A stretch of DNA of 61,577 nt, counting the filler. It is 8 parts of 8 records of this genome, joined end to end, with 100 filler letters (N's around TTAATTAATTAA, not from the genome) between each part and the next. Parts side by side here need not be neighbours in the genome. Positions count along the whole stretch, not along the records: positions 27,220 to 32,812 come from SRR31156797_40303; 7 more parts are not named here. One strand, 5' to 3'. This document shows, piece after piece, positions 15,965-46,584 of this stretch. A program made the position numbers and the translations under genes. The notes beneath the pieces are model-generated. The model saw nothing but the letters and a program-made list of their open reading frames with translations, did not search any database and had not been told where the DNA came from. The stretch's first letter is position 1, and each line of letters opens with the position of its first letter.

Positions 15965-15991
15965 GTCATGCTCCAGGGGTGCTGATTATGG

Positions 15992-16272: not shown

Positions 16273-16809
16273 ATGAATATATTTCGTCGGATTATAGTCG
16301 TTTTGGCTTTGTCATTGGCTTTAGTCGCCTGTTCAAATGAATCCGGGACCGAGGCCAATACCGGACAGGCCGAAGAGGCCGCCGCGCCTGAATTGATGGC
16401 CAAGCCATCGACCGGGAAGTACCCGTATATGGGTGTGGCTGAGTTGGACAAGTATCTTGCTGACAATACGGGCAAGCCGACAATGCTGTTTTTTTGGGCC
16501 ACATGGTGTCCTTCCTGCAAACAGGAAATTCCTGAATTGGAACAGTTGAATACGACCCATGGAGACTCGGTGAATATCATCGCCCTGTCCGTGGATGAAC
16601 GGGTGGAAGATCTGGACAGATTCTTCAGCAAGGGCGATGTCAATCTGCCCGTGTACTGGGGTGATCAGGCCATTGCCGCCAAGTATAAGGTAGAAGCCAT
16701 TCCCACGATGGTCATTTTCGACAAGAGCGGAAAGCAGATTTTCGCTCAGGCCGGAGTTTTTCCACATTCCATGCTTGTTGCCATGGTGAAAAAGTTGACA
16801 GAGCAGTAG
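16273..16809 (+). CDS. TlpA-family thiol-disulfide oxidoreductase lipoprotein
   Basis: Lipobox LVAC; FWATWCPSC; cis-Pro AIPT. Confidence 0.9.
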   Translation: MNIFRRIIVVLALSLALVACSNESGTEANTGQAEEAAAPELMAKPSTGKYPYMGVAELDKYLADNTGKPTMLFFWATWCPSCKQEIPELEQLNTTHGDSVNIIALSVDERVEDLDRFFSKGDVNLPVYWGDQAIAAKYKVEAIPTMVIFDKSGKQIFAQAGVFPHSMLVAMVKKLTEQ

Positions 16810-16814
16810 ATTTC

Positions 16815-17273
16815 ATGATTCGCAAAGCACGCATTGATGACGTTAAGGCTATTCACGGTTTGCTCATGCACACCGATGAACATGATGCATTGGTTCTTCC
16901 CCGTTCGTTCAGTCAGTTGTATTCGCACCTGCGCGACTTCGTGGTTGCCGTGGACGATGACGACAAGGTCATCGGTTGTTGCGCTCTGAGTTTGATCTGG
17001 GAAAATCTCGCAGAAATTCGTTCTCTGGTGGTGCTTCCGGCGCATCGTGGCAAACAATTGGGCCGCCAACTGGTGGAAACCTGCCTAAACGAGTCCGTGA
17101 CATTGGGCATCCTGAAGGTATACACGCTGACCGAAGAAACGAGTTTCTTTGCCCACCTTGGCTTTGTCGAGGAAGGTATGGAGAACCTGAATCAGAAGAT
17201 ATTTATCGATTGCCTCAACTGTCCGAGATTCCCAGACCATTGCAACGAAGTTGCCATGACTATAAACCTTTAA
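16815..17273 (+). CDS. GNAT N-acetyltransferase (short ArgA-like)
   Basis: LPRS..QLY..LRDF, LAEIRSL, and C-terminal DCLNCP..CNE motif. Confidence 0.8.
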   Translation: MIRKARIDDVKAIHGLLMHTDEHDALVLPRSFSQLYSHLRDFVVAVDDDDKVIGCCALSLIWENLAEIRSLVVLPAHRGKQLGRQLVETCLNESVTLGILKVYTLTEETSFFAHLGFVEEGMENLNQKIFIDCLNCPRFPDHCNEVAMTINL

Positions 17274-17287
17274 CCACACATATTACG

Positions 17288-17824
17288 ATGCCACACAAAT
17301 TGACACCGTTCATTCCCGCAGAAAAAATTGCTGATCGCGTTAACGCCTTGGGCCGTGAAATTACGGATTCCTATGAAGGCGATGGACCGCTGGTCTGCAT
17401 CTGCGTACTCAAGGGCGCATTTTTATTTTTTGCCGATATTATCCGAAAGATTGACCGTGAAATCGAGGTCGATTTTGTCCGCTTGGCCAGTTATGGCACA
17501 GCTACATCCCGATCAGAGGACATCGTTTTTTCCAAAGACCTCGAAGTTTCCATCGAAGGGAAAGACGTGCTTGTTATCGAAGATATCGTGGATACCGGCC
17601 ATTCCATGGATTTCCTTTTGCACGTTTTGCGACGCAGAAACCCAAAGAGTTTGAAAATTTGTGCACTTATTGATAAGCATGAGCGACGGGAAATGGACGT
17701 CTCCGTCGATTTCCCTGGTTTCAAGTTGAGCGACGGATTTATTGTTGGCTACGGTCTGGACTATGCCGAACGATACAGAGAGCTTGACGGAATTTATGAG
17801 TTGTCCACGGCTTCTGATAGTTAA
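17288..17824 (+). CDS. hpt: Hypoxanthine phosphoribosyltransferase
   Basis: VLKGAF, VLVIEDIVDTG PRPP motif, VGYGLDY; start reassigned to the ATG at 17288. Confidence 0.93.
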   Translation: MPHKLTPFIPAEKIADRVNALGREITDSYEGDGPLVCICVLKGAFLFFADIIRKIDREIEVDFVRLASYGTATSRSEDIVFSKDLEVSIEGKDVLVIEDIVDTGHSMDFLLHVLRRRNPKSLKICALIDKHERREMDVSVDFPGFKLSDGFIVGYGLDYAERYRELDGIYELSTASDS

Positions 17825-17851
17825 CCAACCGGTTTTTCTGGAGATCGAAAT

Positions 17852-19093
17852 ATGATCGTCACCTGCCCGAATTGCGAGACCCGTTACAATCTGCCCGACG
17901 ACAAAGTTCCTGCGGGTGGAGCCAAGGTCAAATGCTCCAAGTGCGCGCAAGTGTTCAAGGCTGAACATCCTCCGGTAACACCTGAAGAGGAAGTAGAGGC
18001 CCTTCTCGAAGAAGAAGGGCAGGGTGGGGACACCCAGGCCGGAGACGAGTTCGACGAAACATTTGAAGATGTGGCCGCTGGCACTCCTCCTGAAGAGGAG
18101 GCCTCTGTAGATTCACCCGCAGACGAGCCGCAGGAAGAACCCGTTGTCGAGGACGAAGAGCCTCCCGCGCCAGATGCTGACCCCGCTGACGAAGTGGTGG
18201 AAGAGGATTTGCCGGATACTGACGACCTCTTTGATGATGCAGAAGAAGAGATGCCGGCCCCGGGCGAAGGAGCGACACCGTCTGCCCCGGAATCTGATGA
18301 TTTGGGTGACGATCTCTTTGCTGATATAGGCGAAGATGACGACGAGGACTCAAACGGGTTGTTCGAAGACGACGATGACGAATCGGATGATCTTTTCGCT
18401 GATGACGATGATGTTGATGACGAGGACGATGATGACGAGGATGACGAAGAGTCGGGCAGCGTCTTCGACGACTCTTTATCCATTGACGAAGTGCCTCAGA
18501 AAAAAGACGGCAAATCAATCGGTTGCCTGATTATCCTGTTGGTGCTCGCTCTCGGTTTGGGTGGAGCCATTTATTTCAAGGCATGGACATATATCGGTAT
18601 TGATTTGGGCGACATGCTCAAGAATGTCCCGTTTGTTGGACAGCTGTTCATGGAGGAGACCGGTGGCGATCAGGAAGCTGCTCCCGGCGAATCCCCGGCA
18701 GAGCGAGTCCGCAAGATCGAACTGAAAAATGTCAAACAGTATTATGTACCCAATGAGAAAGTGGGGAATCTGTTTGTTGTTGAAGGGAAGGCCATCAATA
18801 AGTTCTCCTCTCCCAAAGAGCGGATAAAGGTCGAAGTCATCCTGTACGATGAGACCAACAATGTTTTGACTTCGCAGGCATTTCTGTGCGGCAACGTGCT
18901 TTCACAGTTTCAACTTCAGGTTCAGACAAAAAAAGAAATTCAGGACGGGCTGTCCAGTGATGTTGGGATTCTGTCCAACAACACCTTTATCCGGCCTGAT
19001 GCATCGACACCGTTTATGGCTGTGTTTTTCGAACCGCCCGAGGGCGTGAAGGAGTTCATGGTCAAGGTCGTGGATGTTGGTGATCCTGAATAA
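17852..19093 (+). CDS. MJ0042-type zinc ribbon / DUF3426 membrane protein
   Basis: CPNCETRY...VKCSKC, long acidic linker, TM helix, C-terminal beta domain. Confidence 0.85.
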   Translation: MIVTCPNCETRYNLPDDKVPAGGAKVKCSKCAQVFKAEHPPVTPEEEVEALLEEEGQGGDTQAGDEFDETFEDVAAGTPPEEEASVDSPADEPQEEPVVEDEEPPAPDADPADEVVEEDLPDTDDLFDDAEEEMPAPGEGATPSAPESDDLGDDLFADIGEDDDEDSNGLFEDDDDESDDLFADDDDVDDEDDDDEDDEESGSVFDDSLSIDEVPQKKDGKSIGCLIILLVLALGLGGAIYFKAWTYIGIDLGDMLKNVPFVGQLFMEETGGDQEAAPGESPAERVRKIELKNVKQYYVPNEKVGNLFVVEGKAINKFSSPKERIKVEVILYDETNNVLTSQAFLCGNVLSQFQLQVQTKKEIQDGLSSDVGILSNNTFIRPDASTPFMAVFFEPPEGVKEFMVKVVDVGDPE

Positions 19094-19108
19094 AAAAAGA
19101 TGAAACTC

Positions 19109-19143
19109 AAGTGGGAGGGTGGAGACACTCTCCCACTTTTTTT
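19109..19143 (+). terminator. Intrinsic terminator
   Basis: AAGTGGGAGGGTG-GAGA-CACTCTCCCACTT followed by a T run. Confidence 0.85.
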
Positions 19144-19306
19144 GTGGGATAATTAAATCGTGTTTTTTTTGAACAACGGACGAAAAAAAGCTTGCAACCG
19201 CTTGCAAAGCATGCTTTTTTCTGGCCGGCGAAAAAGTGACAAATGAGTGGCTTTTTTGGAAATACCCATTGACGGCAATTGACGGCCTGTGCTACTTCTC
19301 CACCAC

Positions 19307-19324
19307 TTGTGAAGGATTGCACGA
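19307..19324. promoter_or_regulatory. Putative Rex operator upstream of the atp genes
   Basis: TTGTGAA-GGAT-TGCACGA matches TTGTGAA-N4-TTCACAA at 12 of 14 positions; rex lies just downstream. Confidence 0.7.
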
Positions 19325-19388
19325 ATTGCCGATTCCGTTTATGTATCCTAATTGGAATGGCTGACAACAATTTTCACGGGATGTGAAC

Positions 19389-19679
19389 ATGCTCTTTTCA
19401 AAAGACGATCGGTTGGTACGTATCACACAATTGGGTGGTACTGCCGGAACAATGGGATTACACATTGTATCGGCCATCATCGTCGGGCTCACTATCGGGT
19501 ACTTTCTGGATGATTATTTTGGAACCAAGCCCTGGTTGATAATGATCTTCTTCTTAGTAGGAGTCGTTTCCGGGTTTAAAATGGTTTTTGAAGATTTCAG
19601 AAAGCTCCAGAGGCGTGAAGAGGCAAAAAAAGCAAGTTCTTTGAAACAGGACGGAGAAAAAGGTGCTGGACGCGATTAA
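19389..19679 (+). CDS. atpZ: AtpZ/AtpI family ATP synthase accessory protein
   Basis: GYFLDDYFGTKPWLI motif, two TM helices, first gene of the atp cluster. Confidence 0.8.
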   Translation: MLFSKDDRLVRITQLGGTAGTMGLHIVSAIIVGLTIGYFLDDYFGTKPWLIMIFFLVGVVSGFKMVFEDFRKLQRREEAKKASSLKQDGEKGAGRD

Positions 19680-20076
19680 CCAAAGGCTTGAGCAATGGCT
19701 CGTCAAGAGCGGATTTCCTAAGCCGGACGTACGTATCGTTGTCCGCAATCAGATTTATGTGTCGCTGGGGACCTCTCTAGTGATCATGCTGGTAACACTT
19801 CTTTCCCGATGGTCTTTAGCCTATTCGGCGGGGGCGATAATCGCCTTGGTCAACTTCTGGACGCTTGCCCGCGTGACTCAGACGTTGGTGTACGACGAAA
19901 AGCGAGGACCGTTTTTACTGTTTATAATATTCATGGCAAAGATGACTCTAAGCGGGCTGGCCCTTTGGTGGCTGATAGGAGTCGAACGTGTTCCCCATTG
20001 GGGGTTGATTTGTGGCCTCGGGACCGTGGTGGTCAACATCACTGCAACCGGACTGCATCAGCTGGGGAAAAAATAG
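19663..20076 (+). CDS. atpI: ATP synthase subunit I
   Basis: Four TM helices; position between atpZ and atpB. Confidence 0.75.
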   Translation: MLDAINQRLEQWLVKSGFPKPDVRIVVRNQIYVSLGTSLVIMLVTLLSRWSLAYSAGAIIALVNFWTLARVTQTLVYDEKRGPFLLFIIFMAKMTLSGLALWWLIGVERVPHWGLICGLGTVVVNITATGLHQLGKK

Positions 20077-20097
20077 CCTAGTTGCTTATAAGGAGGC

Positions 20098-20826
20098 TTG
20101 GATATGGGTTTTGCAGGTGGATTGGCACATCCTCTCTTATATATGGATATGCTCAAAAGCATCGGCCATTGGGGCGCCAGCGTAGAACATTGGCTCGGCG
20201 TTGAAAGCATCAACCATGTTTTGTATATGTGGTTGGTCATGGCTATCATTCTTTCTCTCGGTCTGCTTGTCCGCAGCCGTTTGCAGTTGGTTCCCGGCGG
20301 TCTCCAGAATCTCTTTGAGACCATCTTCGGCGGTTTGGAAGACTTCGTCGTCTCCAACGTCGGCGAACAGGGCCGTCAGTTCATGCCGCTGCTGTGCACC
20401 ATTTTTATTTTCATTCTGGGCATGAACTGGATTGGTTTGATTCCAGGTTGTGATGCTCCGACCGCAAACATCAACACGCCTGCCGCCATGGCAATCATCG
20501 TGTTCTGTTTCTACCAATTCGTTGGTATGAAAAAATGGGGCTTTGGTTACATCAAGCATTTCATGGGTCCGGTTCCTGCACTGGCACCGCTCATGCTTAT
20601 TCTCGAGCCGGTTTCTCACCTCGCTCGTCCTCTTAGCCTGACACTTCGTCTCTTCGGTAATATCCGTGGTGAGGAAATTGTCCTGATCCTGATGTTCATG
20701 CTGGCTCCGCTCGTCGGTTCCTTGCCCATGTACTTCCTGTTCATTCTGGCTAAGACCATTCAGGCATTCATCTTCTTCATGCTGACGATGCTTTACCTGC
20801 AAGGTGCGACTGAGCACGCTCACTAA
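20098..20826 (+). CDS. atpB: F0 ATP synthase subunit a
   Basis: PTANINT, RPLSLTLRLFGN and IQAFIF motifs. Confidence 0.96.
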   Translation: MDMGFAGGLAHPLLYMDMLKSIGHWGASVEHWLGVESINHVLYMWLVMAIILSLGLLVRSRLQLVPGGLQNLFETIFGGLEDFVVSNVGEQGRQFMPLLCTIFIFILGMNWIGLIPGCDAPTANINTPAAMAIIVFCFYQFVGMKKWGFGYIKHFMGPVPALAPLMLILEPVSHLARPLSLTLRLFGNIRGEEIVLILMFMLAPLVGSLPMYFLFILAKTIQAFIFFMLTMLYLQGATEHAH

Positions 20827-20899
20827 GAGCCGCTCGACAAATTATGGGGAAATGGTCCTTGGACCAAAACATATTACGTAATCCATTTGGAGGATTAAA

Positions 20900-21205
20900 A
20901 TGAAAATCGCTAAAATTCTGTTCACCACCATGGCTATGGTTCTCGTTGCTTCCACTGCTTTCGCTGCTGGCGATCCTGCTGTCATGTCCGCTAAAGCATA
21001 CGCCACTGCCATCGGCATGGGCATCGCTGCCGGTCTCTGCGGCATCGGTCAGGGCATGGGCGTCAAGGGTTGCTGCGAAGGTATCGCTCGTAACCCCGAA
21101 GCTGGCGGACAGCTGTCCACCACTCTGATTCTTGGCCTGGCATTCATCGAGTCCCTGGCTATTTACGCCTTGGTTGTTAACCTGATCCTGCTCTTCGTCG
21201 TCTAG
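20900..21205 (+). CDS. atpE: F0 ATP synthase subunit c
   Basis: [26 protein letters not shown]. Confidence 0.96.
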
Positions 21206-21229
21206 TTTTAGATTTACGAAATGAATATT

Positions 21230-21254
21230 AAGGGAGGCTACGGCCTCCCTTTTT
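21230..21254 (+). terminator. Intrinsic terminator after atpE
   Basis: AAGGGAGGC-TACG-GCCTCCCTT-TTT. Confidence 0.85.
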
Positions 21255-21317
21255 CAGCTCTACTCTCATTCAGGATCACATGTCCGCCGCTATTTCAAGC
21301 GGTAAGAGACAGGAAAA

Positions 21318-21950
21318 ATGAAAAGCGAACATATCCCAAAAGCGACTATCGGCAGGTTGGCCGTCTATATTCAGGTTCTTGAGAACCTGTTGCGCGATGG
21401 CAATGAAGTTATCTCTTCCGAGAAACTGGCGCGTGCCTGTTCAGTCAACTCATCTCAAATCAGAAAAGACCTTGCCTATTTTGGCGAGTTCGGCGTGCGT
21501 GGCGTTGGGTACTACGTTCAAGAGCTGATTACTTCGATCAAGCAGTCGCTTGGTATTGACCGTCTGTGGAAATGCGCACTCATCGGTGTCGGCAATATGG
21601 GCAGCGCCCTCCTTCGTCATCACGATTTCGAGCGGCGTGGATTCAAGATCTGCGCGGCCTTTGACTGCGACCCTGACAAGATCGGGTTGGAGTTTGAAGG
21701 AATGGAAATCGTGTGTCCTACACATCTTAAGGAACAGGCTCCAGAGCTGAACCTTGAAATCGGTATTATTGCCACGCCCCCGGATCGTGCTCAGCGTGCA
21801 GCTAACCACCTTGTGGATGCTAATATTCGGGGAATTATCAATTTTGCGCCTTCACGTATCAACGTTCCTAAACATATTCCTGTTGAGTATGTTGATTTCT
21901 TTGATCATCTCTACGGAATTGCTTTCCAGATTACTCTTGGTAACGATTAG
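21318..21950 (+). CDS. rex: Redox-sensing transcriptional repressor Rex
   Basis: IPKATIGRL..Y, QIRKDLAYFGEFG.RGVGY, Rossmann GVGNMG, INFAP. Confidence 0.96.
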   Translation: MKSEHIPKATIGRLAVYIQVLENLLRDGNEVISSEKLARACSVNSSQIRKDLAYFGEFGVRGVGYYVQELITSIKQSLGIDRLWKCALIGVGNMGSALLRHHDFERRGFKICAAFDCDPDKIGLEFEGMEIVCPTHLKEQAPELNLEIGIIATPPDRAQRAANHLVDANIRGIINFAPSRINVPKHIPVEYVDFFDHLYGIAFQITLGND

Positions 21951-21990
21951 TTGATTCATTGAAGTTCACTAGCACATTTATGTGCGAGGA

Positions 21991-22032
21991 ACGTAAAAAC
22001 CCCCTGACATGTATATCAGGGGGTTTTTACGT
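21991..22032. terminator. Bidirectional terminator
   Basis: 17-bp perfect inverted repeat ACGTAAAAACCCCCTGA/TCAGGGGGTTTTTACGT between convergent genes. Confidence 0.85.
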
Positions 22033-22049
22033 GTTCGATCGTAGGGGAT

Positions 22050-22736
22050 TCAGGCTTTAAAGCGGTACCCAACTCCTCGAATGGTTTCTATCCACGAAGC
22101 ATAAGGCCCAAGCTTTTGGCGAAGTCGTCGGACGTGCGTATCGACAGTTCTGGAATACCCTTCGAAGTGCGTATCCCAGACCGTGTCGAGCAGATTGTCA
22201 CGTGTCTGGACTTTCCCTGCACCCGATATCAGCACGGTCAGGAGTTTGAATTCTGTGGCGGTGAGAGATGTCTCTTCTTCGTCGATGGAAATTTGGTGTG
22301 CCTCAAAATCAATTTTGAGTCCTTCTCGTTCCCAAAATTTCGGAGCGTTGGGTTCGGGTGCGCCGTATCGGCGAAGTATGGCCTTTATGCGTAAAACAAG
22401 TTCTCGTGGAGAGAACGGTTTAACGACATAGTCATCAGCTCCAAGTTCAAGTCCGACGATCTTATCGACCTCTTCCCCTTTAGCGGTGAGCATGATGACA
22501 GGAATACGAGCCAGCGCAGGGTCTCCTTTCAACTGGCGGCAGACTTCCAAACCGTCTGTGCCCGGCATCATGAGGTCGAGCAGGATAATATCAGGTTTGA
22601 ATGCTTGGGCGAGGTTGAGACCCAATTGCCCATCTTCTGCTGCTGCAACATCAAAACCCGCTGCTGATAGATTGTATTTGAGCAGTTCGCGAGTATCTCT
22701 GTGATCTTCGACCACCAAAACTTTCTGGGATGACAC
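22050..22736 (-). CDS. OmpR/PhoB family response regulator (PhoB-like)
   Basis: Receiver LLDLMMP and KPFS, winged helix RTVDTHVRRLR..ETIRGVGY; GTG start at 22736 after AAAGGAG. Confidence 0.92.
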   Translation of the reverse strand: MSSQKVLVVEDHRDTRELLKYNLSAAGFDVAAAEDGQLGLNLAQAFKPDIILLDLMMPGTDGLEVCRQLKGDPALARIPVIMLTAKGEEVDKIVGLELGADDYVVKPFSPRELVLRIKAILRRYGAPEPNAPKFWEREGLKIDFEAHQISIDEEETSLTATEFKLLTVLISGAGKVQTRDNLLDTVWDTHFEGYSRTVDTHVRRLRQKLGPYASWIETIRGVGYRFKA

Positions 22737-22783
22737 TGTTGGCTCCTTTCGGTGTAGTTCGGGTCTGCTATACCCTAAGCCGA

Positions 22784-22812
22784 TGCACATAAGTGTTACA
22801 TCTGAGCGACAA
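22784..22812 (-). promoter_or_regulatory. Pho-box-like 11-bp period direct repeats
   Basis: Minus strand TTGTCGC-TCAG-ATGTAAC-ACTT-ATGTGCA, with TATAGC 11 nt downstream. Confidence 0.45.
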
Positions 22813-22985
22813 TTTAGCAACTTGCAACGATTTGTGAAGTCGGGATTGATGGTCCTAGATCATATTAATATGATGTGGGCTAAATCTTTAATGAGGCAAG
22901 TACAACATATTGAATTGACGAAAGAAGATTTATTCCTTTTGTCCATAAAGCGGTTGGCAATCCGTGCCGATAGGATAAATAACGC

Positions 22986-23237
22986 ATGAGAAATCATAAG
23001 GACGATTGGAGCAAAAGAGTTATGTACTATCACGGATTCGACAAGAAATTTCCTTCAGGCAGTAAATATTGGACCATGTACGATGATCAACTCATTGGCA
23101 TGCTCTTTTCGAAGATAGTCAACAAGACCATGAGCGTTGAAACGCCGTCTGCTGATTCTGAAGAAATCGTGGACGAAATGGTTCAGAACTTATTCGATCT
23201 GTGTTTCTACATTAATAAGGATTTTCACGACTGTTAG
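22986..23237 (+). CDS. Small hypothetical protein
   Basis: 83 aa; AGGA upstream; followed by a terminator. Confidence 0.6.
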   Translation: MRNHKDDWSKRVMYYHGFDKKFPSGSKYWTMYDDQLIGMLFSKIVNKTMSVETPSADSEEIVDEMVQNLFDLCFYINKDFHDC

Positions 23238-23263
23238 TTGATTGTTTGATGTCATATCCATTT

Positions 23264-23296
23264 ATGAAAAAGCCCGGATTGTCCGGGCTTTTTCAT
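23264..23296. terminator. Bidirectional terminator
   Basis: ATGAAAAAGCCCGGA-TTG-TCCGGGCTTTTTCAT between convergent genes. Confidence 0.85.
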
Positions 23297-23298
23297 GT

Positions 23299-24297
23299 TT
23301 AATGACTCGTGAAGGCTTCAATGCGATCATGGACATTTTGTTTTATATTTTCATAAAACAGTGAGTAATCATAGAAGTGGTACACCCCTTTGGGGAATGA
23401 TTTCAGATCGATTGAAACCAATTTCATGTCAGCAGGTTGGACAACAAGGCCAGAGTCTTTGCCTTGGGCAGAGGTAAAGTGCGGGACTGTTGTCGTGGTC
23501 CCGTCATCATTGAAGAAGACAGAGCCGATGTTGCGGTCAGCGGGAACAGGTTCACCGTCGATAGTCCAACTGAGTGGGTTTGTGACGATTGCGCCGGAGC
23601 GGATGGTCGGTGCCACACTCTGTTTGCCGGGAGCGACTGAATTATAGGAAATGAAACAGCCTGTCTGGGTCGAGTCTTCACACATTTTGAGGGTGGGGTT
23701 GTTGATTAAATCATCCTTGGTGATGGACCAGCCTATGATGTAGGCGGCTACCAGTTTTTTTTCTATCCCAAGCTGACCCCAATGTTTGATGAGAAGTTCA
23801 ACCAGTATATCGGACCCCTGACTGTGCCCGGCCAGAATAAAGGGGCGACCCTGATTGAAGTTTTTCAAATAATAGGTGAACGCCTGCCAAACATCTTCCA
23901 TTCCATAGCTGATCAGGTTTTCGACATCTTTTTGCGGGAGCGAGAGGGCTGCCATGTTCATTTGGCGGTAAAGTGGGGCGTACAGGTTAGCCTGATTTGA
24001 GAAGACACTCGCCTGTGTTGTCAGTGAAGTTGCGGCGGCCTTTTGCAACTGTGTGTTGTCCGGCGGCATAAGCCAATGGGTATCGTCATGGAGAATCGTC
24101 GGATAAACCCAGAAGATATCCACGGGGTGCGTGTTTGGGGTTTCCGGGAGTGAGAGCCAACTTGCATGTTCGGTATAGTCAGGTGCAGCCGGTACATTTT
24201 GGGCGGAGAAGGGCGGCAATTGCGCCCCGGCCAGAGCGTGTGAGGCGAGCAGGAGTAGCGTCAGGACTACGCTAATGAGTGTGGCAAGTCGGCGCAT
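23299..24297 (-). CDS. DUF3089 family exported alpha/beta hydrolase
   Basis: Signal peptide; DIFWVYPT, APLYRQ, GRPFILAGHSQG and YHFYDY motifs. Confidence 0.85.
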   Translation of the reverse strand: MRRLATLISVVLTLLLLASHALAGAQLPPFSAQNVPAAPDYTEHASWLSLPETPNTHPVDIFWVYPTILHDDTHWLMPPDNTQLQKAAATSLTTQASVFSNQANLYAPLYRQMNMAALSLPQKDVENLISYGMEDVWQAFTYYLKNFNQGRPFILAGHSQGSDILVELLIKHWGQLGIEKKLVAAYIIGWSITKDDLINNPTLKMCEDSTQTGCFISYNSVAPGKQSVAPTIRSGAIVTNPLSWTIDGEPVPADRNIGSVFFNDDGTTTTVPHFTSAQGKDSGLVVQPADMKLVSIDLKSFPKGVYHFYDYSLFYENIKQNVHDRIEAFTSH

Positions 24298-24299
24298 GT

Positions 24300-25463
24300 T
24301 TAGTCCTCTAAACAGAGTTTAACGGCTTCGATGACATCTGCGACATCGTCGTCGGTCAATTTGGCTGACAGTGGAAGGCTGACGGTTTGGCGTCCGAGGG
24401 CAACGGCATGCGGAGTGTCTTCCAGCTTCCACCCGTAGTGTTCGCGGTAATAAGGATGCTCGGGAACAGCCAAATAATGAACGCCTGTACCAATATTTTG
24501 CCGTGTCATTCGCATGATGAATTCGTCACGGTCAATGCCACAGGGGACCGGGTCCAGCATCAGTGTGTACAAATGACGTGCATGGCGGGTGTTTGGTTCT
24601 TCGGGGGCGGGTTGACCAACAGTCAATGGCTTGAACGCCTCTTGATACATATCCCAAATTTCGCAACGGCGGATGAAGTTTTCCTCGATCCGTTTCAGTT
24701 GATGGATGCCAATTGCTGCTTGAATGTCCATCATGTTGTATTTGAATCCGGCGTGTATCACTTCGTAGTGCTTGTACCCGTCATCGGAAAAACGCTTCCA
24801 GGCATCAGCGGACATACCGTGCAGGCCGAGCACCTTGACGTTTTGAATGTCTTCTTCAGTGCGGGCCATGACCATGCCGCCTTCACCCGTGCAGACATTC
24901 TTGGTCACGTAAAAGGAAAAACAACCGAAGTCTCCGAAGGTTCCGGCGTGTTGCCCCTTGTATGTCGTTTCAATGGCGTGCGCGCAGTCTTCGACTACTT
25001 TGAGGTCAAATTCTTCAGCAAGAGCCATGATGGGGTCCATGTCGCAGGAGCGTCCCGCAAAATGAACAGGCAGAATTGCACGGGTGCGGCTCGTTATTTT
25101 TTCACGAATACATTCTGGGTCGATATTCATTGTTCTGGGGTTGATGTCCGCCAAAACAGGTGTACACCCGGCATGAATAATGGCGTTGACCGAGGCACAA
25201 AAAGTGAGAGGGGTGGTAATGACTTCATCGCCGGGCTTGAGGCCGAGAGCGACCAGACTCAGGTGAAGCGCAGCCGTGCAGGAGTTGCATGCCGCAGCGT
25301 GGCCTGATCCAAGATAGGAGGAAAAATCCTTCTCAAAACGGGCTACTTTGGGGCCGGTTCCAAGCCAGCCGGATTTCATGGAATCAACGACTTCATCAAT
25401 TTCGGCCTGCTCAATACGAGGTGCACCGAATACCAGGAAATTATCTTTTGAACGAACGGGCAT
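24300..25463 (-). CDS. DegT/DnrJ/EryC1/StrS aminotransferase
   Basis: NSCTAAL, EDCAHA and SFYVTKN..GEGG motifs; start at 25463 after AAGGAG. Confidence 0.93.
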   Translation of the reverse strand: MPVRSKDNFLVFGAPRIEQAEIDEVVDSMKSGWLGTGPKVARFEKDFSSYLGSGHAAACNSCTAALHLSLVALGLKPGDEVITTPLTFCASVNAIIHAGCTPVLADINPRTMNIDPECIREKITSRTRAILPVHFAGRSCDMDPIMALAEEFDLKVVEDCAHAIETTYKGQHAGTFGDFGCFSFYVTKNVCTGEGGMVMARTEEDIQNVKVLGLHGMSADAWKRFSDDGYKHYEVIHAGFKYNMMDIQAAIGIHQLKRIEENFIRRCEIWDMYQEAFKPLTVGQPAPEEPNTRHARHLYTLMLDPVPCGIDRDEFIMRMTRQNIGTGVHYLAVPEHPYYREHYGWKLEDTPHAVALGRQTVSLPLSAKLTDDDVADVIEAVKLCLED

Positions 25464-25736
25464 GTTCGCATTCTCCTTATATAGAGTTTGTATTGAGGGG
25501 AGAAATATCAGATATCGGACGGGGGGTAAATGCACGCATGCTGACTCAGATTTGCGGAGTAAAGGAAGTCACTCATTTGGCAAAATGGAGCTTTTGACCC
25601 AGAAGAGTATGGTCTTCATATGTCAATTCCGTAAATCGATGTGCCTGAGAGTTGCGCTTTGGCTTTGCATTCGCTATGTAACCAACCCGGCCCAATCCCG
25701 GGTCGGATACGTAAGTTCTGATATGAGGTACCGCAA

Positions 25737-26111
25737 ATGATCAGACCAGATTTCGAAAAAATGGACGGAATGATCCCGGCCATTGCACAGGACGCCGAGA
25801 CCGGCGAAGTCCTGATGATGGCCTATATGAATGAAGAAGCATGGGATAAAACCCTGGAAACCGGTGAGGCTCATTATTGGAGCCGCAGCCGTAAGACGCT
25901 ATGGCATAAGGGCGGTACCTCGGGCCATACACAGAAGGTGAAGTCTATCCGCATCGATTGCGACGACGACACCTTGGTGCTTCTCATCGACCAGATCGGC
26001 GGTGCGGCCTGTCACTTGGGCTACCGCTCCTGCTTTTTCCGTGAACTCAAAGACGGCGAAGTTAAAAAATGCTCCCCCGTCGTTTTCGACCCCAAAGAGG
26101 TATATAAATAA
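25737..26111 (+). CDS. hisI: Phosphoribosyl-AMP cyclohydrolase
   Basis: YWSRSR..LWHKG.TSG, DCDDD and [10 protein letters not shown] motifs. Confidence 0.96.
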
Positions 26112-26989
26112 TGTCTGATCAATTTCTCCGACTCGGTGTTCCCAAAGGCTCCCTGCAAGATGCAACTTTGAAGCTGTTCAAGAAAGCCGGTTGGAATATC
26201 AAGCTGCATGACCGTAATTATTTCCCGGACATCGATGATGATCGTATCAAGTGCTCGCTTGCTCGTGCACAAGAAATGTCCATGTATGTCGAGAATGGTA
26301 CTTTTGATGTTGGTTTGACCGGCATGGATTGGATCAAGGAAAACAAGTCCGACGTGGTTGTTGTGGATGACTTGATTTATTCCAAGGTCTCCAACCGTAA
26401 GGCCCGTTGGGTATTGTGCGTTAAGGGTGATTCTCCGTACAAACGTCCTGAAGATTTGAATGGCAAAAAGATTTCCACGGAGCTGGTTGGCTTCACAAAG
26501 GAATATTTTGCTTCTCAGAATATTGATGTGGATGTTTCTTTTTCCTGGGGCACTACCGAGGCCAAAGTCGTTGAAGATTTGTGCGACGGTATTGTCGAGA
26601 TCACTGAGACCGGTACGACTATCAAGGCGAATGGATTGCGTATCATCGCTGAGTTGATGCAGACCAATACACAGCTCATTGCGAACAAGGAAGCATGGGA
26701 AGATCCCAAGAAACGCAAGCTCATCAAGGAGATCAACCTGTTGTTGCAGGGTGCGCTCAAGGCTGAGAAAATGGTCGGCCTCAAGATGAACCTGCCTAAA
26801 GACAAGTTGGCTGATTTGAACGGTTCGTTGCCGTCTCTCAACTCTCCCACAGTGGCTGAGTTGCAGGATCCCAATTGGTTGTCTGTTGAAATTATGGTCG
26901 AAGAACAGGTTGTTCGCGATTTGATCCCCCGCCTCGTCGAGTTTGGAGCGGAGGGGATTATTGAATATCCTTTGAATAAGGTTATTTAA
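26111..26989 (+). CDS. hisG: ATP phosphoribosyltransferase (long form)
   Basis: PKGSL, GLTGMDW and TETGTTIKANGL motifs plus C-terminal regulatory domain. Confidence 0.95.
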   Translation: MSDQFLRLGVPKGSLQDATLKLFKKAGWNIKLHDRNYFPDIDDDRIKCSLARAQEMSMYVENGTFDVGLTGMDWIKENKSDVVVVDDLIYSKVSNRKARWVLCVKGDSPYKRPEDLNGKKISTELVGFTKEYFASQNIDVDVSFSWGTTEAKVVEDLCDGIVEITETGTTIKANGLRIIAELMQTNTQLIANKEAWEDPKKRKLIKEINLLLQGALKAEKMVGLKMNLPKDKLADLNGSLPSLNSPTVAELQDPNWLSVEIMVEEQVVRDLIPRLVEFGAEGIIEYPLNKVI

Positions 26990-27020
26990 CGATAGATTTC
27001 GTTTTTTAAAATAAGAATGG

Positions 27021-27059
27021 AAATGCCGGAAGAAGCGCTGCTTCTTCCGGCATTTTTTT
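27021..27059 (+). terminator. Intrinsic terminator after hisG
   Basis: AAATGCCGGAAGAAGC-GCT-GCTTCTTCCGGCATTT followed by a T run. Confidence 0.9.
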
Positions 27060-27119
27060 GTTTGCGTGCTTTCGTAATAAGGAAAGAGAAAAGAGGGACT
27101 TCGTTTTTTGGTGGGCGTT

Positions 27120-27219
27120 NNNNNNNNNNNNNNNNNNNNNNNNNNNNNNNNNNNNNNNNNNNNTTAATTAATTAANNNNNNNNNNNNNNNNNNNNNNNNN
27201 NNNNNNNNNNNNNNNNNNN
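27120..27219. other. Artificial contig spacer
   Basis: N44-TTAATTAATTAA-N44. Confidence 0.99.
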
Positions 27220-30200
27220 AAGATGGATAAATTCAGGGTGATCGGCATTGAGTAGCGTCTTTTCCAATGCATCTTTTCCAATGTATATTTCTGATTGTTT
27301 TGGCCCCAAAATATTGGATATGGCATCCAGTTCACCTTTTGCGTGATGCAGCGGAGCGAAGGAAAGCTCTCCAAGATCAGCAGATCTTTGAACAAGCGAT
27401 GCCGTGCTATCCGTTTGATTTTCTGTTGAAGCCAAATCAAAATCAGGGGCACCCATAAGAAGACACCTGCCGACAAAAGTTTGATCTCCAGTGACACCTA
27501 ACAAGTCCCGGCCGGCAGAGAGATAATTGAATGTATATTCCTCGATAAGGAAGCCTCCATCGGGACTTTGGAGTACTTCAAAGGGCACCAAATTTAAATT
27601 GCCGTCTGGCGAAATAAAGATCGTCTTTTCGGATCCCAGAGCTTTCTGGATCGGTTTGAAGATAACGCCATATAATTCACGGGATGCAGATAGTGCCTCC
27701 TTGATGTTCCTATTGCCGCTGGCCGTCAACCGCCTTTTGTATTCTGCAACAATGTGGTCAATCTCGTCGGCCAAGCCAAGATCAACCATTTTGACGGCAT
27801 TATTGTTGCCGGCTTGAACAATAAACGCGATATAGCGGTTCGGTAACTTTCCAGTTCCATCGAAATATTCGGCCTCGATTCGGGCAAATTCCAGCAGGGC
27901 GGATCCCGGAGTTAGAGCTTTGAGAACCTGTTGGCTGTCCGCCTTGGCGATATTCTGGTTGAGTGCGAATGGCTTACTAATACGGCTTAACTTGGCTTCC
28001 AGACGTTCTCTTTCGGCTTCCAGCTCATCCTTTCTTTGCCTGTATCCATCAACATTCACCCGGTTGGGGAGAAATATAAGCCGAGATAGCTCAGCCCGCA
28101 CACCATTCAGTTTTTCAAACAATCTGGCAGCCTCATCGTTTCCATCGAGGATACTGGCCCGCTGGTATCTTTTCTGAACATCCAAAATCATGCCTTTTCG
28201 TTTGAGCCAGGCATTGAAGGCCTCTCTTTGTTTTTGCTGATTTTGCCGGTATTTCTGATTGACCAGGTTCAGGCAATAATGGAGCCCCCAGTTGTTTGAG
28301 GCAACAAACCGAAGCTTCTGACCCTCGGAAGTAAAACCGACAACTTGATCGATGAGTATATTATCGATTTCCAGGCTACGCATGGCGTAATCATAGGCTT
28401 TTTGAGATTCACCCATATCCGCGTAGAGTTGTGACAAGTGGCCGTAACAGGTGGATACATCAGGGTGGTCAAGACCATATGTTCTGATCCAGATACCCAA
28501 AGCCTTATTGTATAGCGGTTCCGCTTTTTCATATTGGCCTATTTTCAGATAGGACGCTGCCAGATTATGAAGGGTATTTGCATAGGAGGCATTGCCGGTG
28601 CCGATGGTTTCAGCTTTCGCATCCAGTGTCCGTTGATACAGTTGGACAGCCTTGTCATAATCACCCAGAAAAGAATAGAGGGTGGCCAGGTTGTTCAATG
28701 TCTTGGCAACATTGGGATGCTCTGGGCCAAAATGGTTTTTACGGATTTTCAGTGATCGTTGATAAAGCGGCTCTGCCTTCTTGTATTCACCGGCGTATTC
28801 ATAGAGCATCGCCAAGTTATCCAAGGTCGTGGCAACATTTGGATGTTCCGGGCCAAGGGCTTTCTCCCATATGGCCACGGCCCGCTTATAGAGTGTTTCT
28901 GCCCTTTGATTATCCGATAGCTTGCCGTAAAGCTTCCCCATGTTGTTCAGGATATAAGCCACTTGGGTGTGTTCCGGTCCATGGGCTTTTTCAATGATCG
29001 GAAGTGCTCGTTGGTAATGTGCCTCGGCCTTTTCATATTCCCCCATTTTTACATAAAGTGCAGCCATGTTGCTGAGGGCGGTGGCCAGATTGGTCGGATC
29101 TTTCTCAAAATGCTTTTCGCTGATGACGATGGCTCTTGTGTAGAGTTCTTCGGATTTAGGATAGTTCCCTTTGGCCTGGCTCAGAAATGCGAGATAGGAA
29201 AGATTGGATGCCACGCGGGGATGATCGGCTCCAAGTATTTTTTCGAAAATGCCCTGGGCTTCGTTAAGTAAGTTCTCTGCTCTTTCAGCATCGCCCAGGT
29301 GATACCACAAGCCTGCCAGATCCTTGCGGGAGTTGGCCACCTTGATGCTATCCGACCCAAACTGTTTTCCCTTGATGATAAGTGCCCGCTCGTTGAATGA
29401 GACCGCAGCTGAATAGTCACCAAGCATTTCATGCACCCATGCAGCATTTTGAAGCATTACCAACAGTTTGGGATGATTTATGCCAAATGCCTTCTCTCGA
29501 ATGGACAAAGCCTTAACAAACAATGATTTGGCGGTTTCATATTGTTCCAATCCGCAATAAGGTAACGCGAGATTATTCAAAGTGAGACCGACGTCAGGAT
29601 GGTCTGGGCCAAGGAACTTTTCCCTGATGGATAGTGCCTGCTTGTTTGTTGAGATTGATGCTTGATAGTCATTACGTGCGTACTGAAGCCTTCCCAGGTA
29701 GTTCAAACTGTCTGCAAGGTATGGATGCCCCTGTTTGAAGAGCTTTTCTCCAATGGCCAAAGCCCGCCGAATGAACGGTTCGGTTTTTTCGTAATCATCG
29801 GTATCGATGTACCTCCAGGCGAAGGTATTCAGAGTCTCCACGATATCAGGGTGATCTGCAGCAAGTGCTTTTTCTTGGATGGCTAAAGCCTTCTTCAACA
29901 ATGCATCTGCTTCTTTCAGATTATCTGTGGTAATTTGTTTCTTGGCCAAAGCAACCAAGCACCAGGCAACCGTAGGGTGGTCATGCCCAAAGGCTTTTTT
30001 TTTGATAAGCAGAGCCTTATTCAGCGAAGCATCTGCTTTTTCATTCTGTCCAATGAGTGTGTATAACTCACCAAAATGAAAACAACTATCCGCCGTCTCA
30101 ATATAGTCCAGTCCATACAACACATCTCTGCTTGATAACGATTCCAATAACAAAGGTTCTGCCTTAGCGTATCGGCCTGCCAGATAATTGAGGACTCCAA

Positions 30201-30453
30201 GATAATCGAGCGTTCTTGCCAGTTCAGCTTTGTTAAGAGGAACTATAGCTCTTTGATCCGCGAGCACCTTCTCTATATAAGGGATGGCCCTGCTGTAATA
30301 GCCCGCCTTTTTCAGATCCTCAGCCTGCTGCCACAATTCAGATGTCTCGTTAGTGTCAGTCTCCTTTGCATGAGTTAATTGGAATGGAATGAGATGAAGG
30401 CACACCAGAAGGATGGTGAATATCCAAGCTCTCTGAGGTGCCAATATCAACAT
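27220..30453 (-). CDS. TPR-repeat CHAT-domain (caspase-like) protein with signal peptide, 3' truncated
   Basis: Many 42-aa G.(D/E)HP.VA..LNNLA repeats; ISPDGNLNLVPFE and GAPDF motifs; contig ends at FIHL, before the expected ATHG. Confidence 0.9.
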
Positions 30454-30729
30454 GCGATCATTCCTTTTATTATTAAAGGGGGTTTGTAATGTATCGGCAG
30501 GCCAAAAAATATCTTAAGAAACGCCATCCATAACTACCTAAAATTAATTATTTTTCATCACTTCTAACCAATTCCTCCATTTTTCTTCAGAAAATTTGTC
30601 ACCTTTCTGGGTTGGGTTTCGGCAACAGGGACAACTCCGCAAATTAAAGCCTTGCAGGATGGAACAAACGGCTGGCGGGCAACGGAAGTTCAAACCAACC
30701 AATCACTTATTATCAAAAGGAGTAACACC

Positions 30730-32568
30730 ATGAGTAACGAAATGAAGTCCCTGACCCCTGAAGCAGCACAGATTGCCAACACCAACACCCAGAACAAGGA
30801 GACCACAATGACAACTTCCAACAACAATCAGACCAGCACCGGAGATCAGAGAACCATTCAAGAAGTTATGGAGGAAAACATGAACAGCAAAGCCCCTACC
30901 CAAACAGAAAAAGAAACCCAGAATGAAAACACCAACGATTCTATCAAGGAGGAAGCCATGACAGCAGCAACTGATACCAAGACCGAGACCGTAGCCCCGA
31001 TTACCAACTCTCAGATTGTCGATGTGCCCATGGATAAGCTGGCTACACCGGTTAGCCATCCCCGACGTAACAAGGGTGACCTTGAAACACTGCAGAAGAG
31101 CATTCGCAAGAATGGTCTTCTGGAACCCCTGACTGTATGCAAATCCGATGGAGATGACTTCTATATGGTCATCGATGGTACCCGCAGAATGACCGCTTTG
31201 ATCGAGTTTGGCTGGAAAGCGGTTCCTTGTATTGTGCTCGATTCCATGCCGCTCGGTGAGATCGCTCACTTCGCTTTCGAAAAAAACATGGAACGGCGAA
31301 GCCTGAGCCCCATCGAGATTGCCCTCCACCTGAAATCCATGCAGGAAAAGTACGGATACAGCCTTCGGGATCTGGATGCTCTGGGCTACGGCTCAGCAGC
31401 CAAGATTTCTCAACAGATCCGGCTGCTGGACCTGCCGGCCAAGGTAAAAGACATGATTGAGAACGCCGAGCTTACCACAACCCACGGGATTGCCCTTTTC
31501 AAACTACCGAAAGCCGAACAGCAGGAAAAGTTGGCCCAACGTGCTGTTGACTTCGGTTGGCCTGCCAAGCGGCTTGCAACCTCCGTCGATAAACTTGTGA
31601 AAAAGGGAAAAGCCACGCCCAAAGAGAAGATCAGCGTCCCCGAAGGTGAGATTCCCGGTGTTTACTTCAAGGATTCCAAGGACATGAGCGAGTTGCCGGA
31701 CAAGTCGGTACATCTCATAGTGACCAGCCCTCCTTACTGCGTCGGAATGGAGTTCGAGAAGGGCATCTCCTACAAAGAGCACTGGGAAAACATGCAGGAG
31801 GTTATGAAGGAGTCCGCCCGCATCCTGGTCCCTGGTGGCATCATGGCCCTGAACGTCGGTGACATCCACAACTACAAAGGTCCTGAGGGGAAAAACGAAC
31901 AGTCCCAGATCCAGCTGGTCGGCCACAAGTATCAGAGCTTTCTCCGCCGGCACAAAGTTTACCTCAGTGACATCATCATCTGGGTCAAACAAACCCATCC
32001 TCAAAGCTTGGATGTCTCCAAACTCATCTCGGATAAAACACCCCACACAGGATACCGAATCTTGATCAGCCATGACCCTGTCTACATTTTCCGCAAGGCT
32101 GGCGAGCGTGAAGTTCCTTCCGAAGATGCGGCCGCAAATTCCGCCCTGACCAGAGAGGAGTGGAACCGATGGGCCTCCGGTATCTGGCCGATCGGCAAAG
32201 TTCACAAAATGGAAGGTCACCCGGCTATTTATCCCGATGAGCTGGTCTACCGCCTGGTCAAGATGTTCTCCTACGAAGGTGAGACCGTGCTCGATCCTTT
32301 CCTCGGCAGCGGCACGACCATGAAGGTGGCCCGTCAACTCGGTCGCGAGGCCTTCGGTTACGAACGGGAAGACCAGTATAAACAGGTCATCATGGACAAG
32401 CTCGGGGTCGGTGAGGATGGGGTCTTGACCCAGTCCATGGTCGGATTCGTAAAAGAAACAATGCTCCACGAAGATGTGGAGGATGTCCTTGCCCAGGCTG
32501 AGGCCGAAGCTGTGGAGAACCTGCCCAAATCTGAAACAGAAGTACCTGAAACTGAAGTTGTGGAATAA
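30730..32568 (+). CDS. ParB/Spo0J N-terminal domain fused to a beta-class N4/N6 DNA methyltransferase
   Basis: SIRKNGLLEPL..IDGTRR..NMERRSLSPIE (ParB), then VTSPPY, HPAIYP and VLDPFLGSGTT; first SD-supported ATG at 30730. Confidence 0.9.
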   Translation: MSNEMKSLTPEAAQIANTNTQNKETTMTTSNNNQTSTGDQRTIQEVMEENMNSKAPTQTEKETQNENTNDSIKEEAMTAATDTKTETVAPITNSQIVDVPMDKLATPVSHPRRNKGDLETLQKSIRKNGLLEPLTVCKSDGDDFYMVIDGTRRMTALIEFGWKAVPCIVLDSMPLGEIAHFAFEKNMERRSLSPIEIALHLKSMQEKYGYSLRDLDALGYGSAAKISQQIRLLDLPAKVKDMIENAELTTTHGIALFKLPKAEQQEKLAQRAVDFGWPAKRLATSVDKLVKKGKATPKEKISVPEGEIPGVYFKDSKDMSELPDKSVHLIVTSPPYCVGMEFEKGISYKEHWENMQEVMKESARILVPGGIMALNVGDIHNYKGPEGKNEQSQIQLVGHKYQSFLRRHKVYLSDIIIWVKQTHPQSLDVSKLISDKTPHTGYRILISHDPVYIFRKAGEREVPSEDAAANSALTREEWNRWASGIWPIGKVHKMEGHPAIYPDELVYRLVKMFSYEGETVLDPFLGSGTTMKVARQLGREAFGYEREDQYKQVIMDKLGVGEDGVLTQSMVGFVKETMLHEDVEDVLAQAEAEAVENLPKSETEVPETEVVE

Positions 32569-32579
32569 TTCAAACCAAA

Positions 32580-32607
32580 GGTGTGGGGCCAGAAACGGCC
32601 CCACATC
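32580..32607 (+). terminator. Stem-loop after the ParB-MTase gene
   Basis: GGTGTGGGGCC-AGAAAC-GGCCCCACATC followed by TGTTTT. Confidence 0.6.
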
Positions 32608-32648
32608 TGTTTTGATTTAAAAACACAATAATTAGAAAAGGTAAAATC

Positions 32649-32812
32649 ATGATCATCGAAAAAGCAAAAGAGATCCAAGCGGTTATGGCCAAAGTTGAGA
32701 CCAATGCAAAAATCCTGGTCAGTTATCAAGTTGATGCGAGAGCAGCTATTCTCGATGCAATTACAGCGGGGGAAGAAAAACAGGTCGATCTTGGACAAAC
32801 TTTCTGGGCATT
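32649..32812 (+). CDS. Hypothetical protein, 3' truncated
   Basis: AAAAGG upstream of ATG; open to the contig edge. Confidence 0.6.
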
Positions 32813-32912
32813 NNNNNNNNNNNNNNNNNNNNNNNNNNNNNNNNNNNNNNNNNNNNTTAATTAATTAANNNNNNNNNNNNNNNNNNNNNNNNNNNNNNNN
32901 NNNNNNNNNNNN
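32813..32912. other. Artificial contig spacer
   Basis: N44-TTAATTAATTAA-N44. Confidence 0.99.
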
Positions 32913-39066: not shown

Positions 39067-39166
39067 NNNNNNNNNNNNNNNNNNNNNNNNNNNNNNNNNN
39101 NNNNNNNNNNTTAATTAATTAANNNNNNNNNNNNNNNNNNNNNNNNNNNNNNNNNNNNNNNNNNNN
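39067..39166. other. Artificial contig spacer
   Basis: N44-TTAATTAATTAA-N44. Confidence 0.99.
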
Positions 39167-46484: not shown

Positions 46485-46584
46485 NNNNNNNNNNNNNNNN
46501 NNNNNNNNNNNNNNNNNNNNNNNNNNNNTTAATTAATTAANNNNNNNNNNNNNNNNNNNNNNNNNNNNNNNNNNNNNNNNNNNN
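46485..46584. other. Artificial contig spacer
   Basis: N44-TTAATTAATTAA-N44. Confidence 0.99.

Follow-up and report, generated by a model that had tools for sequence, protein, structure and literature searches.

A ladder of four evenly spaced Shine-Dalgarno/ATG units at the 5′ end of a ParB-methyltransferase gene

Four in-frame candidate starts open the methyltransferase gene

We analysed a 61,577-nt stretch of DNA (the window), in which a 5.6-kb contig at positions 27220-32812 (G+C content ~0.47) carries a gene for a ParB-N6/N4 DNA methyltransferase. The 5′ end of this gene contains four Shine-Dalgarno (SD) sequences, each followed after a short spacer by an ATG, and the four ATGs share one frame at steps of 78, 72 and 78 nt. 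Judging from the sequence comparisons described below, we regard it as probable, though far from assured, that this ladder provides multiple starts, which would give nested N-terminal proteoforms or added ribosome loading on an island-borne methyltransferase. The features of the gene are listed here; each SD with its ATG is called a rung, and SD strength is the duplex energy against the 9-nt anti-SD.

30730-32568, + strand: ParB-N6/N4 DNA methyltransferase gene, 612 codons from the first ATG
30717..30732, + strand: rung 1; AAGGAG at 30717-30722, 7-nt spacer, ATG at 30730; −8.2 kcal/mol; predicted product of 612 amino acids
30796..30810, + strand: rung 2; AAGGAG at 30796-30801, 6-nt spacer, ATG at 30808; −8.5 kcal/mol; predicted product of 586 amino acids
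30870..30882, + strand: rung 3; GGAGG at 30870-30874, 5-nt spacer, ATG at 30880; −9.3 kcal/mol; predicted product of 562 amino acids
30946..30960, + strand: rung 4; AAGGAGG at 30946-30952, 5-nt spacer, ATG at 30958; −11.4 kcal/mol, the strongest SD; predicted product of 536 amino acids
30730..31014, + strand: N-terminal extension; 95 codons in four units of 24/26 codons, A/C-rich RNA encoding a T/N/E/Q-rich acidic peptide
31015..32568, + strand: gene body with ParB_N, HTH_ParB and N6_N4 DNA methyltransferase domains

The ATG positions, the steps and the spacers of 5-7 nt are exactly those of an original prediction made for this DNA, as examined by a scripted check. The prediction had also held that the units share fragments, and two of them were found twice each, ACCCAGAA at 30787 and 30916, and AACACCAAC at 30778 and 30928. 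Among the 24 in-frame ATGs of the gene, a strong SD precedes four, all of them within the first 77 codons, and the remaining 20 score −6.4 kcal/mol or weaker. The extension holds two more in-frame ATGs without an SD, at 30742 (−2.2 kcal/mol) and 30868 (−2.9 kcal/mol), which the prediction had not listed, and the open frame upstream of rung 1 contains no in-frame ATG. Three strong internal SDs, each well spaced to an in-frame ATG, are packed in 230 nt, and an A directly follows all four ATGs. The 3′ end of the 16S rRNA of Desulfosarcina cetonica, the closest host, carries the canonical anti-SD, to which the properly spaced SDs of all four ATGs are complementary.

We next compared the ladder with chance expectations. 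On both strands together, −8 kcal/mol is reached by 22 of 717 ATGs in L102, the 20-kb D. cetonica locus, and by 9 of 530 in the 13.5-kb contig next to that of the ladder in the window. When the codon order of the extension was shuffled, a comparison suggested with the original prediction, four strong starts appeared in 3 of 2000 trials (0.15%). When synonymous codons were resampled with the peptide fixed, four strong starts appeared in 3.4% of 2000 trials. The ATG background and the shuffles therefore place the ladder far from chance, although the codon choice alone is only modestly unusual.

The RNA around the ladder is poorly structured. The base fractions in the extension are A 0.42, C 0.28, G 0.185 and T 0.115, against about 0.26 for each base (T 0.21) in the gene body. 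The RNA from 30700 to 30999 has a minimum free energy of −28.1 kcal/mol, compared with −35.65 ± 3.86 kcal/mol for dinucleotide shuffles (z +1.96); of 200 shuffles, 196 had a fold as stable or more stable. The mean unpaired probability was 0.63 at the four starts, compared with 0.45 at the other in-frame ATGs and 0.44 at body positions; individually, it was 0.64-0.78 at rungs 1-3 and 0.41 at rung 4. Residues 1-95 are rich in T, N and E with a net charge of −8, and residues 1-93 have a predicted local distance difference test score (pLDDT) below 50 and no secondary structure in an AlphaFold2 model built with a 38-sequence alignment; the added residues are therefore a predicted disordered acidic tail. 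Composition and structure prediction thus agree with the A/C-rich DNA and the T/N/E/Q-rich disordered extension ahead of the ParB domain that had been proposed for this gene.

The product is a predicted ParB-N6_N4 DNA methyltransferase fusion, with matches to PF02195 (ParB_N; residues 96-171, E 5.1e-10, 39.7 bits with a cut-off of 26.3), PF17762 (HTH_ParB, a helix-turn-helix (HTH) domain; residues 191-288, E 7.2e-15) and PF01555 (N6_N4_Mtase; residues 327-555, E 6.7e-38). SPPY and FLGSG are read directly in the translation, and we take them to be the catalytic (D/S)PPY motif and the FxGxG motif for binding S-adenosylmethionine, respectively. Note that SD-like strings also occur within the methyltransferase domain: at 31797-31812, the codons for Gln-Glu-Val-Met-Lys-Glu put GGAGG 2 nt before the ATG at 31804 and AAGGAG just after it. 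The spacing there is wrong, and the scored window gives −6.2 kcal/mol. The peptide echoes the Gln-Glu-Val-Met-Glu-Glu of unit 3.

The unit varies in copy number among homologues

Of 7999 candidates scored in a search of 5.8 billion proteins, 589 were homologues, and N-termini were compared for the best 120 of these. The source names, where given, indicate Desulfobacterota, and the nearest genome copy is that of D. cetonica (77-81% identity). In a close clade of 17 proteins, the extension consists of one to four copies of a 24- or 26-residue unit, and in 15 of the 17, each SD-type Met follows the one before it at a distance of 24 or 26 residues. In the proteins P0065 and P0078, the gap is 50 residues, equal to 24 + 26 with one Met lost. 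The last unit Met lies 14-19 residues ahead of the ParB block throughout the clade, and rung 3 is present in P0054. Each unit of the putative tandem array is made up of an SD, a spacer of 5-7 nt, the ATG and some 19-21 codons.

Short homologues have 28-36 residues before the HPR motif, and their Met1 lines up by eye with the last unit Met. In these single-start homologues, the SD sits in the 5′ untranslated region (UTR). Because Met1 of the single-start homologues corresponds to the last unit Met and its SD belongs to the 5′ UTR, the unit is read as a duplicated initiation region. Rung 4 is likely to be the ancestral start; contigs of one Logan run (X4) match only the core of this rung (30930-30968), with unlike flanks. 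In distant loci, the SD is the same but is read in a different frame or as different residues (for example, Thr-Arg-Arg, Glu-Arg-Ser and Pro-Glu-Gly), indicating that the identity lies at the RNA level and not in the peptide.

At the protein level, the SD is seen as [K/Q/E]-E at positions −4/−3 from Met. Among 122 proteins, counted where the anchor motif was present, this pair precedes 48 of 117 internal extension Mets and 30 of 1792 body Mets; with unique 7-mers, the counts were 40/96 and 15/1040, respectively. In a set of 32 units, 29 have K, Q or E at position −4, so that the charge varies while an NAG codon is possible for all three, and positions −2 and −1 vary freely; note that this set was selected by motif, and positions −4, −3 and 0 are therefore circular. 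Within the window gene, the identity between units outside SD and ATG is 0.42, about the level expected from an A/C-rich composition.

A search with residues 1-100 of P0008 found the unit in 1 of 26 and 3 of 88 candidates, all of the ParB-methyltransferase family, and none outside that family in either candidate set; beyond family members, the extension search gave one truncated copy (P0121). The simplest history of the extension would be repeated in-frame tandem duplication of the initiation region together with the first codons. The original prediction had suggested an old duplication of this kind, and the 1-4 units in homologues, the 24/26 period and a whole-unit 78-nt insertion/deletion relative to D. 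cetonica (see below) are consistent with it.

SD and ATG are retained while the peptide drifts

We then compared the DNA of the window gene with that of its D. cetonica orthologue. A pairwise MAFFT alignment has 78 gap columns at one whole unit.

30850..30927, + strand: whole 78-nt unit present in the window and missing from the D. cetonica orthologue; owing to the repeats, its boundaries are approximate

Rungs 2 and 4 are retained in D. cetonica; for rung 2, the SD and the ATG are the same and the spacer and flanks are altered. The motif recurs in 17 of 17 clade members, two of which were read as DNA. Over the aligned extension, 0 of 19 bases of the SD/ATG core differ, compared with 37 of 185 other bases (p 0.028). 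Of the codon changes in the extension, 22 are non-synonymous and 4 synonymous, compared with 91 and 149, respectively, in the body (p 4.8e-6), indicating that the peptide is little constrained. These two DNAs, in agreement with the protein-level comparison, behave as the original prediction had anticipated, with SD and ATG kept while the amino acids between them drift. The first 22 codons are identical at 18 positions, with no synonymous change where 6.4 were expected. By hand count, Glu at the SD is encoded by GAG in 5 of 5 cases and Glu elsewhere in the extension in 1 of 12; these counts are non-independent because the two genes are orthologous. In gene bodies, GAG accounts for about 50% of Glu codons and AAG for 48-72% of Lys codons.

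The extension is out of step with the phylogeny of the body. The window gene shares 80-93% identity with P0054 in the extension and 39% in the methyltransferase part, and its extension is only 17-77% identical to that of the closest orthologue. On these alignments, recombination has exchanged the 5′ module, and the breakpoints fall close to the last unit or to the HPRR motif. A second clade (P0054, P0065, P0078, P0085 and P0115) is 44-48% identical overall and has extensions near-identical to those of clade-1 genes. By eye, the catalytic SPPY is replaced by other residues in P0054, P0065, P0078 and P0085, and the second-clade proteins without SPPY may be inactive paralogues.

Proposed mechanism and alternative explanations

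In the explanation that we favour, the 5′ end of the gene would be a decayed tandem array of its own translation-initiation region. Since the units are 72 or 78 nt long and free of in-frame stops, each new copy would have lengthened the frame and kept a working-looking ribosome-binding site (RBS). A single unstructured A/C-rich mRNA would offer ribosomes up to four independent loading sites, giving nested products of 612, 586, 562 and 536 amino acids, each with full ParB and methyltransferase domains, that would differ solely in the length of the disordered acidic tail. Selection would keep each SD and ATG, with extra loading sites or tail variants benefiting the island-borne methyltransferase. 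We infer that more than one start is used, and that the benefit would be a higher or more robust output of the methyltransferase or variants of its tail length; the purpose that the original prediction had proposed, a burst of the enzyme when the element enters a new host, is conjectural.

Several observations weigh against this explanation. The synonymous resampling is of modest significance at best (P 0.034 in the window gene, P 0.12 in the D. cetonica orthologue). The unit peptide is partly conserved (of the 32 units, 27 have N at −8, 24 have T at +1, 23 have I at −5 and 20 have E at +11, and N at +14 and +16 is conserved too), so that a peptide repeat or a recent duplication also fits. The third ATG was lost in P0065 and P0078, and D. 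cetonica is without that unit and has a weak first SD (−5.6 kcal/mol). The scarcity of synonymous changes, 4 in 82 aligned extension codons compared with 149 in 514 of the body, would also be explained by recent recombination. Tandem Repeats Finder sees no repeat in the extension DNA; on the simplest history, the duplication would be old enough to escape this program. Full DNA was compared for two repeat-bearing members, and the other comparisons are of proteins whose starts were chosen by gene callers.

The conserved positions lead to an alternative in which the 24/26-residue unit functions at the protein level (a spacer before ParB or a short binding motif, for instance), the start is essentially the first ATG, and AAGGAG is a leftover of the origin of the unit or a by-product of Lys-Glu. 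The synonymous resampling, which still gave four strong starts in 3.4% of trials, is in line with this idea, as are extensions 80-93% identical between proteins whose methyltransferase parts are 38-39% identical. However, the substitutions in the extension are mainly non-synonymous (22:4), residues 1-93 are predicted to be disordered, position −4 alternates among K, Q and E with changing charge and a constant NAG while −2 and −1 are free, distant homologues keep the SD in other reading frames, and the unit is confined to the ParB-methyltransferase family in the search with P0008. We consider a repeat maintained for its peptide an unlikely but serious candidate. That A/G-rich Lys-Glu codons beside Met merely mimic an RBS in a low-complexity region is very improbable: the extension is indeed rich in K, E and M, but the codon-order shuffles reached four strong starts in 3 of 2000 trials, the 24/26 periodicity recurs in 17 of 17 clade members, and the pair before Met is enriched in extensions (48/117 against 30/1792).

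It is also conceivable that ATG 30958 alone makes the functional protein, the upstream units being a long 5′ leader with stand-by or decoy SDs, or decaying duplicates. ATG 30958 has the best SD (−11.4 kcal/mol) and matches by eye the sole start of the short homologues, upstream rungs are gained and lost among relatives, and the leader of the relatives contains a conserved SD-like block with no start codon after it (see below). On the other hand, upstream ATGs with good SDs in open RNA (unpaired probability 0.64-0.78, compared with 0.41 at rung 4) would, by the established rules of initiation in bacteria, be expected to initiate, units that are all in frame and stop-free would be needless in a mere leader, and the first 22 codons match D. 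cetonica at 18 of 22 positions with no synonymous change. A single true start at rung 4 thus seems quite improbable to us.

If the rungs are used, the gene would be a natural example of new starts and N-terminal proteoforms arising through in-frame tandem duplication of an initiation region, with a copy number that shifts among close relatives, and the protective methyltransferase of a mobile element would be tunable through ribosome loading. If one start is used, the ladder would be a decaying repeat in a disordered tail, of modest interest. The ladder also matters for annotation, since gene callers do not agree on where these genes start: deposited homologues have anything from one to four units, and the predicted protein therefore shifts by up to 76 residues.

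Probable genomic island, conserved leader and Xis-like gene

In D. cetonica, the gene order is extracytoplasmic function (ECF) sigma/anti-sigma factors; CHAT and TPR genes (− strand); the ParB-methyltransferase gene; a small open reading frame (ORF); an Xis-like ORF; a tyrosine integrase gene; and tRNA-Arg. The integrase gene (L102 14834-16111) abuts tRNA-Arg (16113-16189) and lies 2.2 kb downstream of the methyltransferase gene. Homologues turned up in 12 of the 401 genomes sampled for the order, in 1 of the 65 for the family and in 12 of the 401 for the class. The integrase at tRNA-Arg and the sporadic homologues are therefore the signature of an integrative island, and a tRNA-integrated island holds as the predicted setting for the nearest relative. 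The original prediction had placed the gene on a mobile element; that part stands for D. cetonica, whereas the window contig stops at 32812, too early for any integrase to come into view. In the genome sampling, D. cetonica alone has the repeated extension, and the other matches have one start, or two in the loci L092 and L100. The homologue of the genome G002 (L004, G002:C7:662744-664219) has three in-frame TGA codons and more stops upstream; it is probably a pseudogene, or belongs to a lineage reading TGA differently.

A conserved non-coding leader lies upstream of the gene, with further copies as listed.

30590..30665, + strand: conserved non-coding leader of ~70 nt, 76-80% identical before the orthologues in D. 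cetonica and the genomes G169 and G002
L102 11977-12144 and 14346-14416; L087 3145-3215; L108 1501-1574: leader copies elsewhere

The leader is also found upstream in the genome G091, with a weaker match, and Logan contigs from 3 runs cover it. It is kept across genomes whose methyltransferase proteins are 53-67% identical, and it consists of two invariant blocks with a variable 8-9 nt between them, an arrangement that may resemble the promoter of an alternative sigma factor. In the relatives, a perfect SD-like block of 10 nt closes the leader, and no start codon follows it; in the window, this block is degenerate. The leader is likely a promoter or operator. In the leader region, no sigma-70 consensus was found, and the one terminator-like site, on the minus strand, is at chance expectation. 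An Rfam search of 30440-31100 gave two chance-level matches only (E 3.7 and 4.2). A structured RNA was also considered and is unsupported, with a consensus fold of −5.0 kcal/mol and 1 covarying pair.

In D. cetonica, the second leader copy precedes the Xis-like gene, and the leader may be a promoter or operator common to the methyltransferase and Xis-like genes. The Xis-like ORF (L102 14507-14713) matches HTH_17 with E 4e-4, below the Pfam cut-off, and has two in-frame SD+ATG pairs, at 14507 and 14573, 66 nt apart (−9.3 and −8.0 kcal/mol). Its second start at 14573 follows an Ile-Lys-Glu context, as in the methyltransferase units. A more far-reaching reading, which we find rather unlikely, is that the ladder is a selected, self-extending initiation cassette, in which in-frame duplication acts as a dial for output or tail length; the Xis-like gene may share the cassette, and both genes would be induced together upon induction of the element or its arrival in a new cell. 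Such a dial would be an undescribed way to tune expression, by the copy number of whole initiation regions within a reading frame.

Searches beyond these genomes gave distant or short matches at best. Searches of IMG/VR with the whole protein and with the ParB part found no relative. In a plasmid collection searched by tblastn, 500 records match, all at <60% identity, and 0 of the 500 cover at least 80% of the query. Four public runs, searched at 80% likeness, matched in short stretches only, in the leader, in the core of rung 4 and in parts of the ParB domain; no RNA dataset was among the public runs listed. The 80 metagenome loci L007-L086 are distant (28-43% identity) with generic methyltransferase patterns, and were excluded from the comparison.

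Relation to known systems

Nested in-frame products are made by several plasmid and phage genes: RK2 TrfA-44/33, R6K pi, ColIb Sog, T7 gp4A/4B and lambda S107/S105. These pairs resemble the ladder in that mobile-element genes with internal in-frame starts give two sizes of one protein; they differ from it in having distinct known activities, and they are not known to be built from repeated initiation cassettes. Among such products, a methyltransferase is not known. Alternative starts also occur in infB, which has three. Cases of the infB type usually have two starts at irregular distances and a short form that often lacks a domain, whereas the ladder has up to four at a strict 72/78-nt period, apparently from duplication of the initiation region, and only the tail differs.

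Bacterial N-terminal proteoforms from in-frame alternative starts are reviewed for IF2 alpha/beta (infB), ClpB, SafA, PBP1b and SsaQ (PMC13515050), with further literature in PMC11005335 and PMC13245402. The infB-type cases and the ladder are alike in that one mRNA has several in-frame starts, each with its own RBS, and a common C-terminal body (PMC13515050). The main text of that review contains neither “methyltransferase” nor “mobile genetic”. Internal SD motifs are described as depleted in coding regions (PMC5100845); against this general rule of SD avoidance within reading frames, the window gene concentrates three strong internal SDs.

Prophage regions are reported to be enriched in ParB-methyltransferase fusions, for which a role in anti-defence has been suggested (bioRxiv 10.1101/2025.10.10.680097), and the ParB-N6_N4 fusions of phages, prophages and plasmids have the same domain architecture as the window gene. 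The relevant passages of that paper mention neither N-terminal extensions nor isoforms. Orphan methyltransferases are reported to be enriched in plasmid leading regions (PMC11541004); their setting is a conjugative leading region, whereas for the ladder gene the setting seen in a Desulfobacterales relative is an island with an integrase at a tRNA gene. Searches for literal phrases in the main text of open-access articles returned no account of tandem or duplicated SD-start ladders in bacteria. Alternative in-frame starts and ParB-methyltransferase fusions are thus already known, and what appears to be new is a periodic ladder, apparently formed by duplication of the initiation region, whose copy number varies between relatives.

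The contig and its neighbours

The window consists of 8 contigs in series, and each join is N44, a 12-base all-frame stop linker and N44. The ladder contig holds three genes, namely the TPR/CHAT gene, the gene with ParB_N, HTH_ParB and N6_N4_Mtase, and the start of a small ORF.

7908-8007, 13541-13640, 27120-27219, 32813-32912, 39067-39166, 46485-46584 and 55072-55171: contig joins
27220..30453, − strand: TPR/CHAT gene, divergent from the methyltransferase gene, assigned by Pfam matches; cut by the contig end and syntenic with D. cetonica
32649..32812, + strand: small ORF, beginning only, cut by the contig end; its product resembles by eye that of the small ORF after the D. cetonica methyltransferase gene

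The small ORF at 32649..32812 matched no Pfam or PHROG family. The TPR/CHAT gene is one (cut) ORF in the window, and in D. cetonica (L102 8068-11876, − strand) it corresponds to separate ORFs for TPR (850 amino acids) and CHAT (419 amino acids). A short upstream ORF of 24 codons (30659-30733) is out of frame with the methyltransferase gene and has a poor SD of its own; its TGA overlaps the ATG at 30730 (ATGA). Such a stop/start overlap is an arrangement typical of translational coupling. The D. cetonica counterpart of this ORF stops ~20 nt short of the start, and P0001 has it as an in-frame fusion.

The G+C content of the contigs in the window ranges from 0.26-0.30 up to 0.49-0.52, and several neighbours of the ladder contig have 0.28-0.37. 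The contigs with G+C of 0.49 are 13641-27119, which carries ATP synthase and HisG housekeeping genes, and 27220-32812. Given this gap in G+C content, the AT-rich contigs may stem from an organism different from that of the two G+C-0.49 contigs.

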